Shown here piece after piece: positions 1-34,053 of a stretch of 64,000 nucleotides of DNA (positions are counted from its first letter, which is position 1; every line of letters starts with the position of its first letter). Source of the stretch: a virus; IMG/VR virus record IMGVR_UViG_3300029850_000008; one strand, given 5' to 3'. A program made the translations under genes and the position numbers. The notes under the pieces were generated by a model, which was given only the letters and a program-made list of their open reading frames with translations, was not told the origin of the DNA and did not search any database.

Positions 1-235
1 GAGCATCATCCGCAACCGGAAACTGTGGAGCATCATCCGCAACCGGAAACTGTGGAGCATCATCCGCAACCGGATACTATGGAGCATCATCCGCAACCGG
101 ATACAAGGGAGCATCATCCGCAACCGGAAACTGTGGAGCATCATCCGCAACCGGAGACTATGGAGCATCATCCGCAACCGGAAACTGTGGAGCATCATCC
201 GCAACCGGATACAAGGGAGCATCATCCGCAGGAGA
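1..235 (+). repeat. 27-bp tandem repeat, 8 full copies plus a partial one (GAGCATCATCCGCAACCGGAnACnnnG)
   Basis: Direct reading: units start at 1,28,55,82,109,136,163,190,217; only the last ~6 nt of each unit vary. Confidence 0.95.
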
Positions 236-18666: not shown

Positions 18667-20421
18667 ATGAGTAATATATACCAGTTAAGAGAACTACTTA
18701 GAACACAGACAATTTATGATTTGCCGTTACGAGTTGCATACTATGCAAGAGTCAGCACAGATCATGATGAACAGAAAACATCAATCAAGAACCAGGATGA
18801 TTATTTTAAGGAATTGATAAAATCAAAGCCGAACTGGAAATTTATGGGAGGCTATATTGATGAGGGGATTTCTGGAATTGCCGTAAAAAATCGTGAAGAT
18901 TTTTTGAGGATGATTGATGATGCTAAGAATGGAAAGATTGATTTGATACTGACAAAAGAAATTTCCAGATTCGCTAGGAATACACTAGATAGCATCAAAT
19001 ACACCCGTGAACTTTTGGCATGTGGTGTATGTGTATGGTTTATGAATGATGGAATCAATACGATTGATGAAGACAGTGAGTTAAGATTGACTATTATGGC
19101 AGCTATGGCACAGGACGAAATCAGAAAGATGTCTTCCAGGATTAAATTCGGTCAGGCTCAGTCAATAAAAAATGGCGTAGTAATGGGAAATTCAAGATTG
19201 TATGGTTATGACAAAAAAGATGGAAAACTGACAATCAATGAAGCTGAAGCCGAAATGGTTCGATTCATTTTTGAAAGTTATGCATCTGGCAAATGGACAA
19301 CACCACAGATTGAACGATACCTATATGAAAAAGGGTACAGAAACTATAATGGAGGTAAAATCAACCGTGGAGTTATCAAAAATATCATAAAGAATCCAAA
19401 GTACAAAGGTTATTATGCTGGTGGAAAAGTAAAAGTTATTGATATGTTTACAAAAAAACAGATGTTTCTTCCAAAAGACCAATGGGTTTATTACAAGGAT
19501 GATGGATCAACGGTTCCGCAAATCATAGATGAAAAGACTTGGGAAGATGCAAATTATTATATGAAGAGCCGTGGTGACAATATAAGAAGTCACAGAACGG
19601 TGTTTAAGTATGGTAATGTGTTTACTGGAAAGGTAATTTGTGGGATAGATGGTGCTTCGTATTGGCTACGTGAACACAAGATACGTGGAAAAGAAAGTGA
19701 TCCAAGATGGGTCTGTAGTCATAAAATCAAAAATGGAGCAAATTCTTGTCTATCGGTTCCTGTCAGAGAAAGCGACTTGAAACAAATGGTTGCATCAGCA
19801 ATCAGTCAAGCAGCTGGAAACTCTAAAGATGTTATTGATTCATATATGAATTATTACTTAAAAGCCATTGATGATTCAAAAGAAAAAGAGGGAGAAATAG
19901 CAGTTTTAAGAAAAAATATTGAATCCACAAAATTGAAGATGGAGAAAATCCTGGATTACAATTTGAACGGATCAATATCTGATGATGAATTCTTAAAAAG
20001 AAACGCTGCGTATAAAAAAGAGATTGAAAACGCAGAAGAGAAAATTCTAAAATTGTCTAAAAAACCGGAAGAGCCGGATTCTATTGCAAGGAAAATCGAA
20101 CAGATAAGGGAATACTTGGCGAACACAGAAATTGTTTCTGCTGATGACATAACTAAACAAATTGTCGAAAAATTAATTGAAAAGATAATTATATTACCAG
20201 AAGAGGAAAATGGTATAAAAGTCATCAAGTCAGAAATATACCTTATAAATAAGGAACTGTATAAGTTTTGTAAGGATATGGGGACAAAAAATAGTTGTTC
20301 AGATAACGTAACTTTGATCATGTTCCCTAAACAACGCATGGAAATTACTAATGAAAATGCGCATTGTGTGAACCAGTATAAAAGATTTTCAATAGAATTT
20401 TCTCTCTTTGTAAGATTTTAA
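18667..20421 (+). CDS. Large serine recombinase (integrase)
   Basis: YARVSTDHDEQKTSIKNQ catalytic Ser region, resolvase + recombinase + zinc-ribbon + coiled-coil length (584 aa). Confidence 0.9.
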   Translation: MSNIYQLRELLRTQTIYDLPLRVAYYARVSTDHDEQKTSIKNQDDYFKELIKSKPNWKFMGGYIDEGISGIAVKNREDFLRMIDDAKNGKIDLILTKEISRFARNTLDSIKYTRELLACGVCVWFMNDGINTIDEDSELRLTIMAAMAQDEIRKMSSRIKFGQAQSIKNGVVMGNSRLYGYDKKDGKLTINEAEAEMVRFIFESYASGKWTTPQIERYLYEKGYRNYNGGKINRGVIKNIIKNPKYKGYYAGGKVKVIDMFTKKQMFLPKDQWVYYKDDGSTVPQIIDEKTWEDANYYMKSRGDNIRSHRTVFKYGNVFTGKVICGIDGASYWLREHKIRGKESDPRWVCSHKIKNGANSCLSVPVRESDLKQMVASAISQAAGNSKDVIDSYMNYYLKAIDDSKEKEGEIAVLRKNIESTKLKMEKILDYNLNGSISDDEFLKRNAAYKKEIENAEEKILKLSKKPEEPDSIARKIEQIREYLANTEIVSADDITKQIVEKLIEKIIILPEEENGIKVIKSEIYLINKELYKFCKDMGTKNSCSDNVTLIMFPKQRMEITNENAHCVNQYKRFSIEFSLFVRF

Positions 20422-20800: not shown

Positions 20801-20959
20801 TTTTGTTCAGATCCAATGGCAGACCTCACCAGAGCGATTTTGACGGCTTTTGTGGCTGGAGTATATGAAAGTCCTGCTGAAAACCTGGAAACGCCTAAAT
20901 GGGGCTATAAACGTGCCTATTAATTAGATTACATCGTACCACAAATAAACTCAATATAC

Positions 20960-21000
20960 AAGTGTAAACACAAATAGAGGGGCGTTATTATCCCCTCTAT
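20960..21000 (-). terminator. Intrinsic terminator of the minus-strand operon
   Basis: Minus RNA AUAGAGGGG-loop-CCCCUCUAU followed by UUUGUGUUU. Confidence 0.7.
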
Positions 21001-21200
21001 TATTCATAAAAGCCCCATGCTTTGTATTGCTTTTTCAATACTTCCAAAGCAGAATTTTTACTGAGAAACTCAGCTCTAGCCGTTTCTCTTGTATATTTCT
21101 TGGCACTATACCAGGCGAAACCATTGATCACATACCAGGAATCCCCGTGATCATCGGTTTCCAGCTCAATACTATAAACCATCTTTTTCTTACGTGGCAT
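21000..21200 (-). CDS. Hypothetical protein (66 aa)
   Basis: AAGGAGG RBS upstream of ATG 21200. Confidence 0.6.
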   Translation of the reverse strand: MPRKKKMVYSIELETDDHGDSWYVINGFAWYSAKKYTRETARAEFLSKNSALEVLKKQYKAWGFYE

Positions 21201-21234
21201 GGCTTGACCTCCTTATTCTTTTTTTCTGGATATG

Positions 21235-21432
21235 CTAAAAAATCCCGGATATACCGCCGGGGCGGTGCCCTGTTATGGCCTTGGACATCGGCTACAGTGC
21301 TGGCTTTTTCGGCTCCCAGTCAACGCCGCTTTTGCCTCCCTTCGCGATCCGGGCATTAAAAGCGGATAAAGCCCGGAGAGAAACCCAGCGGCGGACTGAA
21401 CCGCCCACGGCTTAACCGTCACAGGGTAGGTT
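21235..21432 (-). ncRNA. GC-rich structured leader/ncRNA ending in an intrinsic terminator
   Basis: Strong GC excess relative to surroundings; multiple stems (CCCUGU/ACAGGG, GGCGG/CCGCC, CCGGGC/GCCCGG, CCGCUUUU/AAAAGCGG, GCUGG/CCAGC); 3' CCCGG-loop-CCGGG + AUUUUUU. Confidence 0.45.
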
Positions 21433-21495
21433 TTATAAGAGGCTCAAGCTATAACCTCCGATAAATGACAAAACGGCAATAAGAACGTAATACAT
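21433..21495 (-). CDS. 20-codon hydrophobic mini-ORF MYYVLIAVLSFIGGYSLSLL
   Basis: AAAGGAGGG RBS 6 nt before the ATG (21495-21493); stop (TAA) at 21435-21433. Confidence 0.35.
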   Translation of the reverse strand: MYYVLIAVLSFIGGYSLSLL

Positions 21496-21510
21496 ATGTT
21501 TCCCTCCTTT

Positions 21511-21771
21511 CTATGCTTGGCAGAAATCGCCCTGCCAGCCTGTTACTAGGATCATTTTCCCGTCATCCCGGCGGTAAACAACGCCGCAGCCGTCCGCCCA
21601 TGTGCTCCATACAAGCCAACCTGGACGGCCTACAGTTTCCTTTTTTCTGGAATCGTACCAGATAAAGGACGGCTTAATACCTTCTTTTTCTTGATCCAGA
21701 GCGTTCTGGATCGCTTGATCTTCCGTGATAATCTGGTTATGATCCTTAAAATGCAAGATATATTTTCTCAT
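21511..21771 (-). CDS. Hypothetical protein (86 aa)
   Basis: ORF with GGAGG RBS. Confidence 0.6.
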   Translation of the reverse strand: MRKYILHFKDHNQIITEDQAIQNALDQEKEGIKPSFIWYDSRKKETVGRPGWLVWSTWADGCGVVYRRDDGKMILVTGWQGDFCQA

Positions 21772-21801
21772 GTGTTTTCCTCCATTTTTTTTGATTTTTA
21801 T

Positions 21802-21846
21802 AAAAACGCCGCCCGTGGGAATCGAACCAACGAAACTCCAAACGGC
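21802..21846 (-). terminator. Long hairpin + U-run with tRNA T-arm-like core (GGUUCGAUUCC)
   Basis: Minus RNA GCCGUUUG...CGGGCGGC then GUUUUU, directly after the stop of 21847-21996. Confidence 0.5.
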
Positions 21847-21996
21847 TTAATATTCGATGAATACAAACTCTTCATCGGTTTCCAGTTCTGCAACCCGGTT
21901 TCCAAGTGTGATAAGCATAAAACCGGCCTTTCTGTAATCCTTGATAAGGCTTTCAAAATGCTCCTTACTTGCTGCGGTGATTTTATATTTTCTCAT
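21847..21996 (-). CDS. Hypothetical protein (49 aa)
   Basis: Internal ATG 21996 preceded by GAGAAAGGAAC; longer ORF-track version would overlap the ribozyme and previous gene. Confidence 0.55.
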   Translation of the reverse strand: MRKYKITAASKEHFESLIKDYRKAGFMLITLGNRVAELETDEEFVFIEY

Positions 21997-22014
21997 ATTG
22001 TTCCTTTCTCGCCT

Positions 22015-22070
22015 GTCATCATCAGCGCAACGGGGCGGATCGTTGCGGACGCCCTGGAGGGCGTTTCGAC
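22015..22070 (-). ncRNA. Type II hammerhead ribozyme motif (HH-A)
   Basis: GUC-GAA-[ACGCCC UCCA GGGCGU]-C/[CGCAACG AUCCGCCC CGUUGCG]-CUGAUGA-U-GAC; all core nucleotides present. Confidence 0.75.
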
Positions 22071-22330
22071 TATTTAAGCAGCTTTTCAAATGCTTTTCTC
22101 TTTTTGTAATTTTCAACTTGACTTATACTGGAGTCATCAAAAAGGATCTGGAAACCATCAGAAGCAAGTGCTGCGGCCATTGTGTACGGGTCAATCTTTG
22201 GGAACCTGCAAAGGTATTCGACCACGTTCATTCTTATGTTTTTATCATTTTTCGTTCCGATCTTTTCAAGGTCTCTTTTGTAAACATTAAAAATTCTTTC
22301 CTGTTTCTCTTTCACGGTTTCTTTTATCAT
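22070..22330 (-). CDS. Hypothetical protein (86 aa)
   Basis: ORF flanked by the two hammerhead motifs; stop UAG overlaps HH-A 5' end. Confidence 0.6.
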   Translation of the reverse strand: MIKETVKEKQERIFNVYKRDLEKIGTKNDKNIRMNVVEYLCRFPKIDPYTMAAALASDGFQILFDDSSISQVENYKKRKAFEKLLK

Positions 22331-22357
22331 ATATTTTACGTCCTTTCTTTTTGCCCT

Positions 22358-22412
22358 GTCTCATCGGTGCAGGTGGGGCAGTTCCTACAGACCGCCGGGC
22401 GGCGGTTTCGAC
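22358..22412 (-). ncRNA. Type II hammerhead-like motif (HH-B), core variant CCGAUGA
   Basis: GUC-GAA-[ACCGCC GCCC GGCGGU]-C/[UGUAGG AACUGCCCCA CCUGCA]-CCGAUGA-GAC; same architecture as HH-A with compensatory stem changes. Confidence 0.55.
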
Positions 22413-22415
22413 TAA

Positions 22416-22643
22416 TTAGCATTCTCGGTGTATGCAACCAGTGTAAACAGTGTTTGTGGTTCCCTCGCAGCCGTTCAACCACTTTTTGCAGTGGTAGCAG
22501 ATGCTATTGTAACGGTTGTATTCTGTAGCTTTTCCATATTCCTCGCACTCTTTGCGATATGGACAAGTGGTGCAGTCCTTTTTGTATTTATGGCAATTTC
22601 TTTTTAGCAGTTTTTCCAGCTCTAAAAATCTTTCTTTTGTCAT
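22416..22643 (-). CDS. Cys-rich hypothetical protein (75 aa)
   Basis: ORF with GGAG RBS, many CxxC pairs. Confidence 0.6.
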   Translation of the reverse strand: MTKERFLELEKLLKRNCHKYKKDCTTCPYRKECEEYGKATEYNRYNSICYHCKKWLNGCEGTTNTVYTGCIHREC

Positions 22644-22675
22644 GTTTTCTATCTCCTTTTAGGTTTTCATCTCTT

Positions 22676-22800
22676 TGTTATGTACACAATTATATAATGT
22701 TACGTACACAATATCAATGTGCATTTTACACAAAGTTACGCACACATTTTTATATATTTTTGATGTGTACACAACATTGAAACTATGTTATAATTTCCGC
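22676..22800. promoter_or_regulatory. Divergent promoter region with five GTACACAA-like operator repeats
   Basis: TGTACACAA, CGTACACAA, TTTACACAA, GCACACAT, TGTACACAA; TGTTATAAT extended -10 for the + gene; TTGATA-17-TATAAT on the minus strand. Confidence 0.55.
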
Positions 22801-22823
22801 ATAATGGAAGGGGGGGCCTTTTT

Positions 22824-23006
22824 ATGGCGATGTCAGAAGAACGAAAAAATTATCTGTATTCTTACAAAAAACAAAGGCTAAAGCGTGTCCCGCTGGATAT
22901 GCAAATAGCGGACTATGAAGCGCTAAAAGCAGCAGCAGATCAAGCCGGGCAAACTGTCAACGGCTTTATTAAACAAGCCATAGCCGAAAAACTGGAGCGG
23001 ATGTAG
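22824..23006 (+). CDS. Ribbon-helix-helix (CopG/Arc-like) regulator
   Basis: ..KRVPLDMQIADYEALKAAADQAGQTVNGFIKQAIAEKLE RHH-type pattern. Confidence 0.55.
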   Translation: MAMSEERKNYLYSYKKQRLKRVPLDMQIADYEALKAAADQAGQTVNGFIKQAIAEKLERM

Positions 23007-23012
23007 TAGGAG

Positions 23013-23037
23013 AGAGGGGAATAACCCCCTCTTTTTC
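23013..23037. terminator. Bidirectional terminator hairpin
   Basis: AGAGGGG-AATAA-CCCCCTCT + TTTTC between convergent genes. Confidence 0.65.
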
Positions 23038-23050
23038 TATTTCCCGGCAT

Positions 23051-23254
23051 TTAACACATACTTCCGCAGATCCCGTCTTTTGGCGCTGGTTCGTCTAACC
23101 AGTGATTAAACGCTTCCGGGTTCCGGCGTTCGATCTCGTCCATGATCCAGCCCCTAACCGTTGAAAGATTCGGGTTCCGCTCTGCGGTGCTGGTCGCCTC
23201 CCAGATGTCCAGGAGCTGACAGAGTGACATAGTTTTCAAGTCTTTTTTCTTCAT
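23051..23254 (-). CDS. Hypothetical protein (67 aa)
   Basis: ATG 23254 preceded by AAGGAAAGGAAG; avoids overlap with upstream gene. Confidence 0.5.
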   Translation of the reverse strand: MKKKDLKTMSLCQLLDIWEATSTAERNPNLSTVRGWIMDEIERRNPEAFNHWLDEPAPKDGICGSMC

Positions 23255-23273
23255 GTTTATGTTCTTCCTTTCC

Positions 23274-23510
23274 TTAGAATTCGATTTTCCCATTTGATAA
23301 GCATTTGCAGGCGTATGAAAAACCTGCAATGAATGCTTTTTCCTGGATATCCCATACATTTTTATTGATGGAGCATTCTATTTCCTCTGCTAATTCCTCT
23401 TTGAGAATTTCATGGATTTTTGCAACTGCTTTGTCATAATCTCCCCAACTAAGGTTCCCGGCTTCTTCCTCGAACCACTTTTTGTAAATCATTTTTGCGA
23501 ATTCTTCCAT
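23274..23510 (-). CDS. Hypothetical protein (78 aa)
   Basis: ATG 23510 preceded by AAAGGAG. Confidence 0.5.
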   Translation of the reverse strand: MEEFAKMIYKKWFEEEAGNLSWGDYDKAVAKIHEILKEELAEEIECSINKNVWDIQEKAFIAGFSYACKCLSNGKIEF

Positions 23511-23657
23511 GTTTAACTCCTTTCTTAAAACAAATGTTTTACTATGGTTTAATAATACACTATAGTAAAACAAATGTCAACATTATAACAAAACATTTTA
23601 AACTATATTGAATAATTATATTTGTTATGGTATTATATAGAATATAGGAGGGGAAAA

Positions 23658-23870
23658 ATGGAGAATATAAGAAATGAAATTAAATCATATATAGCAAAAA
23701 GCGGTATGACATTAACGGAAATAATAGCTAAATACAACGAGACGCATGACACACCAACAACAACACAAAACATTTCTAATAAGTTGACCAGAGGAACTAT
23801 AAAATATAGTGAATGTTTAGAACTAGCTAAAATCATGGGGTATGTTATTAAATGGGAAAAAGAAAATTGA
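23658..23870 (+). CDS. Small HTH DNA-binding protein (repressor/Cro-like candidate)
   Basis: SGMTLTEIIAKYNE...NISNKL HTH-like segment; divergent from minus-strand genes. Confidence 0.45.
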   Translation: MENIRNEIKSYIAKSGMTLTEIIAKYNETHDTPTTTQNISNKLTRGTIKYSECLELAKIMGYVIKWEKEN

Positions 23871-33646: not shown

Positions 33647-33718
33647 TGGGCTATCGCCAAGCGGTAAGGCACATGACTTTGACTCATGTATGCGTTGGTT
33701 CGAATCCAACTAGCCCAG
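33647..33718 (+). tRNA. tRNA-Gln (anticodon UUG)
   Basis: Manual cloverleaf: acceptor UGGGCUA/UAGCCCA (U1-A72), D GCC/GGC, anticodon stem CAUGA/UCAUG loop CUUUGAC, T GUUGG-UUCGAAU-CCAAC; no encoded CCA. Confidence 0.85.
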
Positions 33719-33980
33719 CTTGGTAAGATTTATTTACCTTACCAAAATAGCATATCATTTATGCTATTCCTCCTCATTCATATTACCACCTAGCGGAAAG
33801 CTGATAAAAGAACCGTCACAAGGTTCGGGTGGTTTTCTGGTTTGGAAGCCAGGACATGTGCAAAGTTCCGAACTGTTTACCACATCATAGGGATGTTTGC
33901 ATGGCCTTTGTTATGGCTGGTGGATAAGAACCATAACAGTGAAGGGGATTTCTTGCAGAATTCAAATCCCCTTTATCTCA

Positions 33981-34053
33981 GGAGCTTTATTTCAGTTGGT
34001 AGAAAGACCGCCTCATAAGCGGTAAGTCATCGGTTCGAGTCCGGTAGGCTCCA
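33981..34053 (+). tRNA. tRNA with CAU anticodon (Met, or Ile2 if lysidine-modified)
   Basis: Manual cloverleaf: acceptor GGAGCUU/AGGCUCC, D UUUC/GAAA, anticodon stem ACCGC/GCGGU loop CUCAUAA, T AUCGG-UUCGAGU-CCGGU. Confidence 0.8.

Follow-up and report, generated by a model that had tools for sequence, protein, structure and literature searches.

A probable type II hammerhead ribozyme and its U4C neighbor in the small-gene operon of a temperate phage

Type II hammerhead ribozymes with a pseudoknot between loop I and the 3' tail occur in the neighborhood of integrases and prophage genes, and their activity has been shown both in vitro and in E. coli (PMC3088659). They form clusters that flank individual prophage genes of varying identity, their stem II often has just two pairs, and the loop I/tail pseudoknot, which is present in most of them, is required for fast cleavage (Perreault et al. 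2011, PMC3088659). In vivo cleavage has been demonstrated for three bacterial type II hammerheads (PMC8782182). The uncoupling of cistrons by cleavage is a published hypothesis and is unproven (PMC3088659, PMC6765202), as is the biological benefit of cleavage for every phage hammerhead (PMC6765202).

The window analyzed here, a 64-kb stretch of viral DNA, is a temperate phage genome that encodes RecT, a helicase, a primase-helicase, a serine integrase, the large terminase, portal, major head and tape-measure proteins, and two tRNAs. Positions 22071 to 22006 of its minus strand very probably encode a type II hammerhead ribozyme (HH-A) inside an operon of small genes, as judged from sequence and structural comparison. 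A preliminary description had read this motif on the minus strand from 22070 down to 22015, and a base-by-base check of those letters found no discrepancies. Including its 3' pseudoknot tail, HH-A comprises 66 bases and is matched both by the Rfam model RF02276 and by a model built here from viral relatives (R1).

The RNA starts with the 5' strand of stem II (GUC; G11.3, U11.2 and C11.1, 22070-22068) and continues with the catalytic-core residues G12, A13 and A14 (22067-22065), which are invariant in alignment A3 of viral homologs. Stem III (22064-22049) is a 6-bp hairpin, ACGCCC-UCCA-GGGCGU, that appears in the minimum-free-energy fold; its closing A15.1-U16.1 pair is A22064/U22049. C17 (22048) follows, and then stem I (22047-22026), a 7-bp hairpin (CGCAACG/CGUUGCG) read from sequence and fold that encloses the loop AUCCGCCC. 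The CUGAUGA core (C3, U4, G5, A6, U7, G8 and A9) occupies 22025-22019. A single extra U (22018), an insertion that recurs in relatives, lies between A9 and G10.1. The 3' strand of stem II (GAC; G10.1, A10.2 and C10.3, 22017-22015) pairs with 22070-22068 to give three base pairs, G22017-C22068, A-U and C-G. A22014 precedes the tail GGCG (22013-22010), which can pair with CGCC in loop I (22037-22034), as the preliminary description had expected. This pseudoknot consists of four G-C pairs and uses the same loop and tail position as in the family.

The sequence and the Rfam alignment both give the type II circular order that had been proposed, 11.x-GAA-III-H17-I-CUGAUGA-10.x, with stems I and III capped and stem II open. 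The invariant elements claimed for HH-A are likewise all there: CUGAUGA, GAA, A15.1-U16.1, the GUC triplet with a C rather than a G at position 17, and G10.1-C11.1. Hammerhead numbering agrees with the earlier placement of the predicted cut 3' of C22048, between 22048 and 22047 after the GUC triplet. A covariance-model search with Rfam Hammerhead_II (RF02276), suggested as a check in the preliminary description, scores HH-A at 40.2 bits with a gathering score of 37; the E-value is 3.2e-7 for the 201 nt searched and 1e-4 for the whole window. The default Rfam gathering scan of the whole 64-kb window returns two tRNAs as its sole entries and misses HH-A because of its speed filters; laxer filters recover the ribozyme.

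HH-A shares with the RF02276 hammerheads of Perreault et al. (2011) the core, the topology, the pseudoknot, the short stem II and the stem III sequence ACGCCC/GGGCGU. The setting is also alike, near an integrase, between small phage genes and clustered around single genes. Nothing essential differs: the extra U is treated as an insertion by the Rfam model, and the pseudoknot is CGCC/GGCG where the consensus is GGC/GCC. The Desulfovibrio vulgaris hammerheads detected by cyPhyRNA-seq (PMC8782182) are of the same type and also lie beside hypothetical or phage-like genes. The D. vulgaris copies were shown to cleave in cells; HH-A has another host and other flanking genes. One extra nucleotide between A9 and G10.1, as in HH-A, is tolerated in the Chrysanthemum chlorotic mottle viroid (+) hammerhead (De la Pena and Flores 2001, as cited in PMC1636495). 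The viroid ribozyme belongs to type III and its extra base is an A, whereas HH-A is type II with an extra U.

Model R1 is a covariance model derived from alignment A3, which contains 62 unique viral hammerheads and leaves out the window itself. The source sequences were collected with the pattern CGAAACGCCC...GGGCGTC...CTGATGA, which has matches in at least 120 viral contigs of IMG/VR; these contigs share the stem III sequence of HH-A. The extra U after A9 was taken out of 25 rows of A3 and is therefore an insertion in R1. With filters off, R1 scores HH-A at 62.1 bits over the whole window (E = 6e-16), and the best unrelated score in the window is 13 bits.

The ribozyme architecture is under selection. 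Standard pairs fill 91.9% of the pair cells in A3 (62 homologs) compared to 35-40% when the partners are slid by 1-3 columns, and double (compensatory) changes occur at 6/6 pairs of stem I, 2/3 of stem II and 5/5 of the pseudoknot. Stem III covariation in A3 is uninformative because the search pattern fixed that stem. Pseudoknots of at least 4 bp can be drawn for 53% of 118 unique related copies; permuting loops and tails lowers the figure to 15% (at most 24% in 200 permutations). The same copies show how common the particular features of HH-A are: stem II has 3 bp in 70/118, GUC/GAC is the second commonest stem II (21/118), and a single U follows A9 in 36/118. The two caveats attached to the motif in the preliminary description, the 3-bp stem II and the extra U, are true of the sequence; both states are frequent among relatives and are therefore ordinary for the family. 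A U at the A9/G10.1 position is said to have raised the cleavage rate in the experiments of De la Pena and Flores.

The placement of HH-A relative to genes follows that of its relatives. HH-A sits within a minus-strand series of tiny genes that runs from 22643 to 21000. As described earlier, it lies between two of them, an 86-aa gene (22330-22070) and a 49-aa gene (21996-21847, ATG at 21996-21994), both minus-strand ORFs. It begins on the UAG stop of the upstream gene (22072-22070), so that G22070 is at once the last base of the stop codon and the first base of stem II. The gap of about 10 nt to the next ribosome-binding site is correct when measured from the end of stem II to the GGA; the full site, AAAGGA (22007-22002), begins only 2 nt beyond the pseudoknot tail, and the ATG of the 49-aa gene is 5 nt past it. 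Among relatives, the stop codon of a same-strand ORF (40 codons or longer) falls between -6 and +10 nt from the hammerhead 5' end in 89/105, and an ORF begins within 30 nt downstream in 74/105. The genes on either side are small, with median lengths of 96 aa upstream and 89 aa downstream, and they are highly diverse, with 183 upstream and 211 downstream clusters. A tie of the hammerheads to one downstream gene family was considered and rejected, as the best PHROG family matched at most 2 of 92 sampled downstream proteins. Hammerheads also cluster: a hand count found two or more co-oriented copies per locus in 43/77 further phage loci, and the corresponding operon contains 1-3 type II hammerheads in relatives with 58-94% protein identity.

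A second type II hammerhead, HH-B, occupies 22413-22349 on the minus strand, about 340 bases upstream of HH-A, and was not flagged in the preliminary description. Its core is CCGAUGA, in which U4 is replaced by C (C4 at 22366). R1 scores HH-B at 53.9 bits (E = 1.6e-13) and RF02276 at 31.0 bits, under the gathering score of 37. Stem II starts 3 nt past the TAA stop (22418-22416) of a 75-aa Cys-rich gene (22643-22416, minus strand), the Rfam and R1 matches run from A22413, and the 3' end lies just ahead of the ribosome-binding site of the 86-aa gene, which is thus bracketed by HH-B and HH-A. The pseudoknot has 5 bp (UGCCC, 22380-22376, with GGGCA, 22356-22352), and scission is predicted between 22390 and 22389. 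The hammerhead features are otherwise complete; HH-B departs from the family in two respects, U4 and the Rfam threshold, and is therefore filed as a core variant and not as a canonical member.

The C4 core is not peculiar to this locus. A U4C hammerhead is kept in five related contigs (L121, L124, L125, L126 and L129) and persists in relatives in which the neighboring protein falls to about 60% identity, and stem III of HH-B covaries in relatives (ACCGCC/GGCGGU versus ACGGUGG/CCACCGU). Searching by sequence pattern turned up U4C hammerheads in at least 120 more viral contigs; these contain 75 unique well-formed copies, among which 47 distinct stem III inserts occur. When position 4 was left free, 294 unique related hammerheads had U (211) or C (83) and none had A or G; position 7 varies in the same set, as the consensus permits. 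U4C is a natural variant of a viroid hammerhead, and the summary in PMC3088659 of its reference 30 describes considerably lower in vitro activity, with infectivity nonetheless supported. The viroid copy and HH-B have the substitution in common; unlike the viroid copy, HH-B is a type II phage hammerhead, and U4C is widespread here, in at least 120 viral contigs. The literature searched yielded the viroid mention and no description of U4C in type II phage hammerheads. It is possible, and we put it forward tentatively as a reading that may well be wrong, that HH-B represents a selected, kinetically tuned class that gut-type phages pair systematically with canonical hammerheads such as HH-A, rather than a decayed copy. 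U4C copies score below the threshold, and standard Rfam annotation therefore largely misses the class.

The gene content places both ribozymes in a phage genome. The serine integrase gene (18667-20421) is 1.6 kb from HH-A. The best cultured relative of the terminase is from Clostridium phage Maintenon, a Clostridium innocuum phage (39% identity), and the remaining top terminase matches come from phage contigs of human faeces. Two scans of representative bacterial genomes found no relatives of the integrase or of the 86-aa protein encoded at 21511-21771, and a megablast of 20900-23700 against GenBank phages returned 0 matches. Pfam and PHROGs searches with eight small operon proteins gave nothing usable, and the 86-aa protein upstream of HH-A matched neither collection. 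Gln (UUG) and Met (CAU) tRNA genes lie on the plus strand upstream of the terminase gene (33647-33719 and 33981-34053), and k-mer self-comparison shows tandem direct repeats with a 27-nt period at the start of the window (1-110, plus strand).

A promoter-like site, TTGATA-17-TATAAT (22717-22689, minus strand), matches the consensus at 11/12 positions and is identified by this match only. There are no terminator-like sites ahead of the two hammerheads; the first is at 21827-21811, followed by a U run, within an element that ends the stretch containing the 49-aa gene (21846-21805, minus strand). The predicted transcript, drawn from the promoter-like site and this first terminator-like site, therefore comprises the 75-aa gene, HH-B, the 86-aa gene, HH-A and the 49-aa gene. 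A reading of HH-A itself as a terminator was rejected, as a U run is absent after its hairpins.

Several other features surround this operon. A 60-aa gene resembling Arc/ribbon-helix-helix proteins (22824-23006, plus strand) diverges from it, and the facing promoter-like sites within 22689-22805 suggest a small regulatory switch over the hammerhead operon. The element at 21846-21805 folds as a tRNA-like minihelix in which a GCCG/CGGC stem surrounds the T-arm-like sequence GGUUCGAUUCC ahead of the U run. A homolog with better pairing is found in another contig (L243:5262-5312). Neither ARAGORN nor Rfam calls the minihelix; it may be left over from a tRNA, or it may act as a processing signal or a terminator. 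A hydrophobic 20-codon mini-ORF, MYYVLIAVLSFIGGYSLSLL (21496-21434, minus strand), has a strong ribosome-binding site and is kept in L121. Between it and a 66-aa gene is a GC-rich intergenic stretch of about 210-221 nt (21445-21225, minus strand) that is 97.7% identical in L121 and ends in a terminator-like hairpin (21261-21244). Its fold is not unusually stable (z = -0.78), and the GC-rich intergenic stretches within 21180-21870 yielded no Rfam match with E as high as 10. At 20730-20580 (minus strand), in non-coding DNA that separates the integrase gene from the operon, a G-run plus GGTATCAAAAAA(A)TT occurs twice, the copies being about 120 nt apart; it could be an attachment-site or regulatory repeat.

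The chemistry established for the family makes Mg2+-dependent self-cleavage 3' of C22048, splitting the operon transcript into single-gene mRNAs, the most likely role of HH-A. Stems III and I would fold as local hairpins upon transcription of the region, and the 3-bp stem II, formed by the stop-codon G and UC with the downstream GAC, would close the three-way junction. Pairing of the tail GGCG with CGCC of loop I would hold stems I and II parallel, allowing the core to catalyze attack of the C17 (22048) 2'-OH on the adjacent phosphate. The 3' end of the upstream RNA would then be the stem III hairpin just past the stop codon, with 22048 bearing a 2',3'-cyclic phosphate. The downstream RNA would carry a 5'-OH on 22047 and begin with the stem I hairpin, followed by the ribosome-binding site and ATG. 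Cuts at both HH-A and HH-B would free the 86-aa cistron as a 342-nt RNA (22389-22048). Neighboring cistrons may thereby be uncoupled in stability and translation, as hypothesized by Perreault et al. 2011 and Weinberg et al. 2019. The HH-A cleavage rate could be modest, given a pseudoknot of only 4 bp and a stem II of just 3 bp that carries a bulged U. Since the 5' end of the ribozyme lies within the stop codon, a terminating ribosome would cover stems II and III, and cleavage could respond to translation of the upstream gene; this sensitivity is speculation.

The same bulged U, short stem II and 4-bp pseudoknot could reduce activity far enough to make HH-A a dead or very slow relic, its hairpins kept to protect mRNA ends or to space cistrons without cleavage. 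The U4C substitution of the neighboring HH-B, which Perreault et al. say lowers in vitro activity considerably (PMC3088659), points in that direction too. However, a spacer needs no conserved CUGAUGA, GAA or H17, and HH-A keeps every invariant core base. The restriction of position 4 to U or C, with position 7 free, in the 294 related hammerheads fits the catalytic consensus, and the extra U is a frequent natural state. A relic is accordingly improbable.

A close relative at the locus, IMG/VR contig 3300045988_084454 (L121), has both hammerheads and encodes 86-aa proteins that are 93-94% identical, with 93% for the protein upstream of HH-A. HH-A has 0/66 mismatches to its counterpart there, versus 30/519 differing positions in the two flanking genes. 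The zero-mismatch block in L121 runs 75 nt into the upstream gene, and the identity of HH-A is therefore weak evidence of selection on the ribozyme itself. A 223-nt block (22003-21781) that contains the 49-aa gene and the trailing tRNA-like/terminator-like element is absent from L121, which is otherwise about 95% identical. In L121, HH-A therefore feeds straight into the ribosome-binding site of the next gene. The junctions of this cassette fall in purine-rich ribosome-binding sites right behind the HH-A tail. L096, another phage contig, contains a homolog of the 49-aa gene downstream of a type II hammerhead that differs from HH-A; upstream of that hammerhead come a different gene and a U4C hammerhead.

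This arrangement bears on whether the hammerheads do something beyond cutting. The 86-aa cistron, bracketed by two hammerheads, would be released with 5'-OH and cyclic-phosphate ends and might undergo RtcB-type ligation into a circular or spliced RNA; alternatively, units of a hammerhead plus a ribosome-binding site might serve as junctions for cassette exchange. Compared with L121, the 223-nt cassette is inserted precisely at the boundary of the HH-A tail and the next ribosome-binding site; this position, the occurrence of the 49-aa gene behind another hammerhead in L096, and the extreme diversity of hammerhead-adjacent genes are consistent with such roles. On the other hand, spliced or circular products were sought by Perreault et al. 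and none were found (PMC3088659), and both ends of the indel fall within purine-rich ribosome-binding sites, outside the ribozyme. The HH-A and L096 hammerhead sequences differ, and the ribozyme therefore did not travel with the 49-aa gene. Ligation or cassette exchange as the function of the locus is very improbable, and self-cleavage that divides the transcript is the preferred reading.

The background expected for the motif was determined in the window. A loose regular-expression descriptor finds two sites, HH-A and HH-B, compared to 0.02-0.04 per simulated 64-kb sequence, and no hammerheads beyond these two were found in the window by RF02276 with laxer filters or by R1. The CTGANGA motif taken alone is not enriched (24 observed versus 33 expected), and the nested minimum-free-energy fold of HH-A is not significantly more stable than shuffles (z = -1.3). 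A chance resemblance, with two GC-rich hairpins that are ordinary intergenic stem-loops or a terminator standing beside CUGAUGA and GAA, agrees with the last two results, but the Rfam and R1 E-values for the whole window, two adjacent co-oriented sites where the descriptor predicts a few hundredths of one, the absence of a U run after the hairpins, and a pseudoknot and stem II that fit the family covariation leave it almost no probability and effectively refute it.

HH-A adds one more case to a well-known family in its typical setting. More unusual are the widespread, conserved U4C partner under the Rfam threshold and the gene cassette directly behind HH-A. As a type II hammerhead, HH-A would mark an RNA-processing site and account for an odd GC-rich intergenic block, and its recovery with laxer filters illustrates that the default Rfam pipeline can overlook such sites. 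The locus is another well-resolved case of hammerheads around single tiny genes beside a phage integrase. If the U4C hammerheads are indeed a tuned class, the two cuts that free a cistron would differ in rate or in the condition they respond to (e.g. pH or Mg2+), and the small accessory genes of the operon would be released in a programmed manner. The locus is compact, with a canonical and a U4C hammerhead around one 86-aa gene and a natural relative without the downstream gene. It may therefore be used to study the effect of cleavage on mRNA stability and translation in phage operons, and the C4 core as a possible tuned variant.
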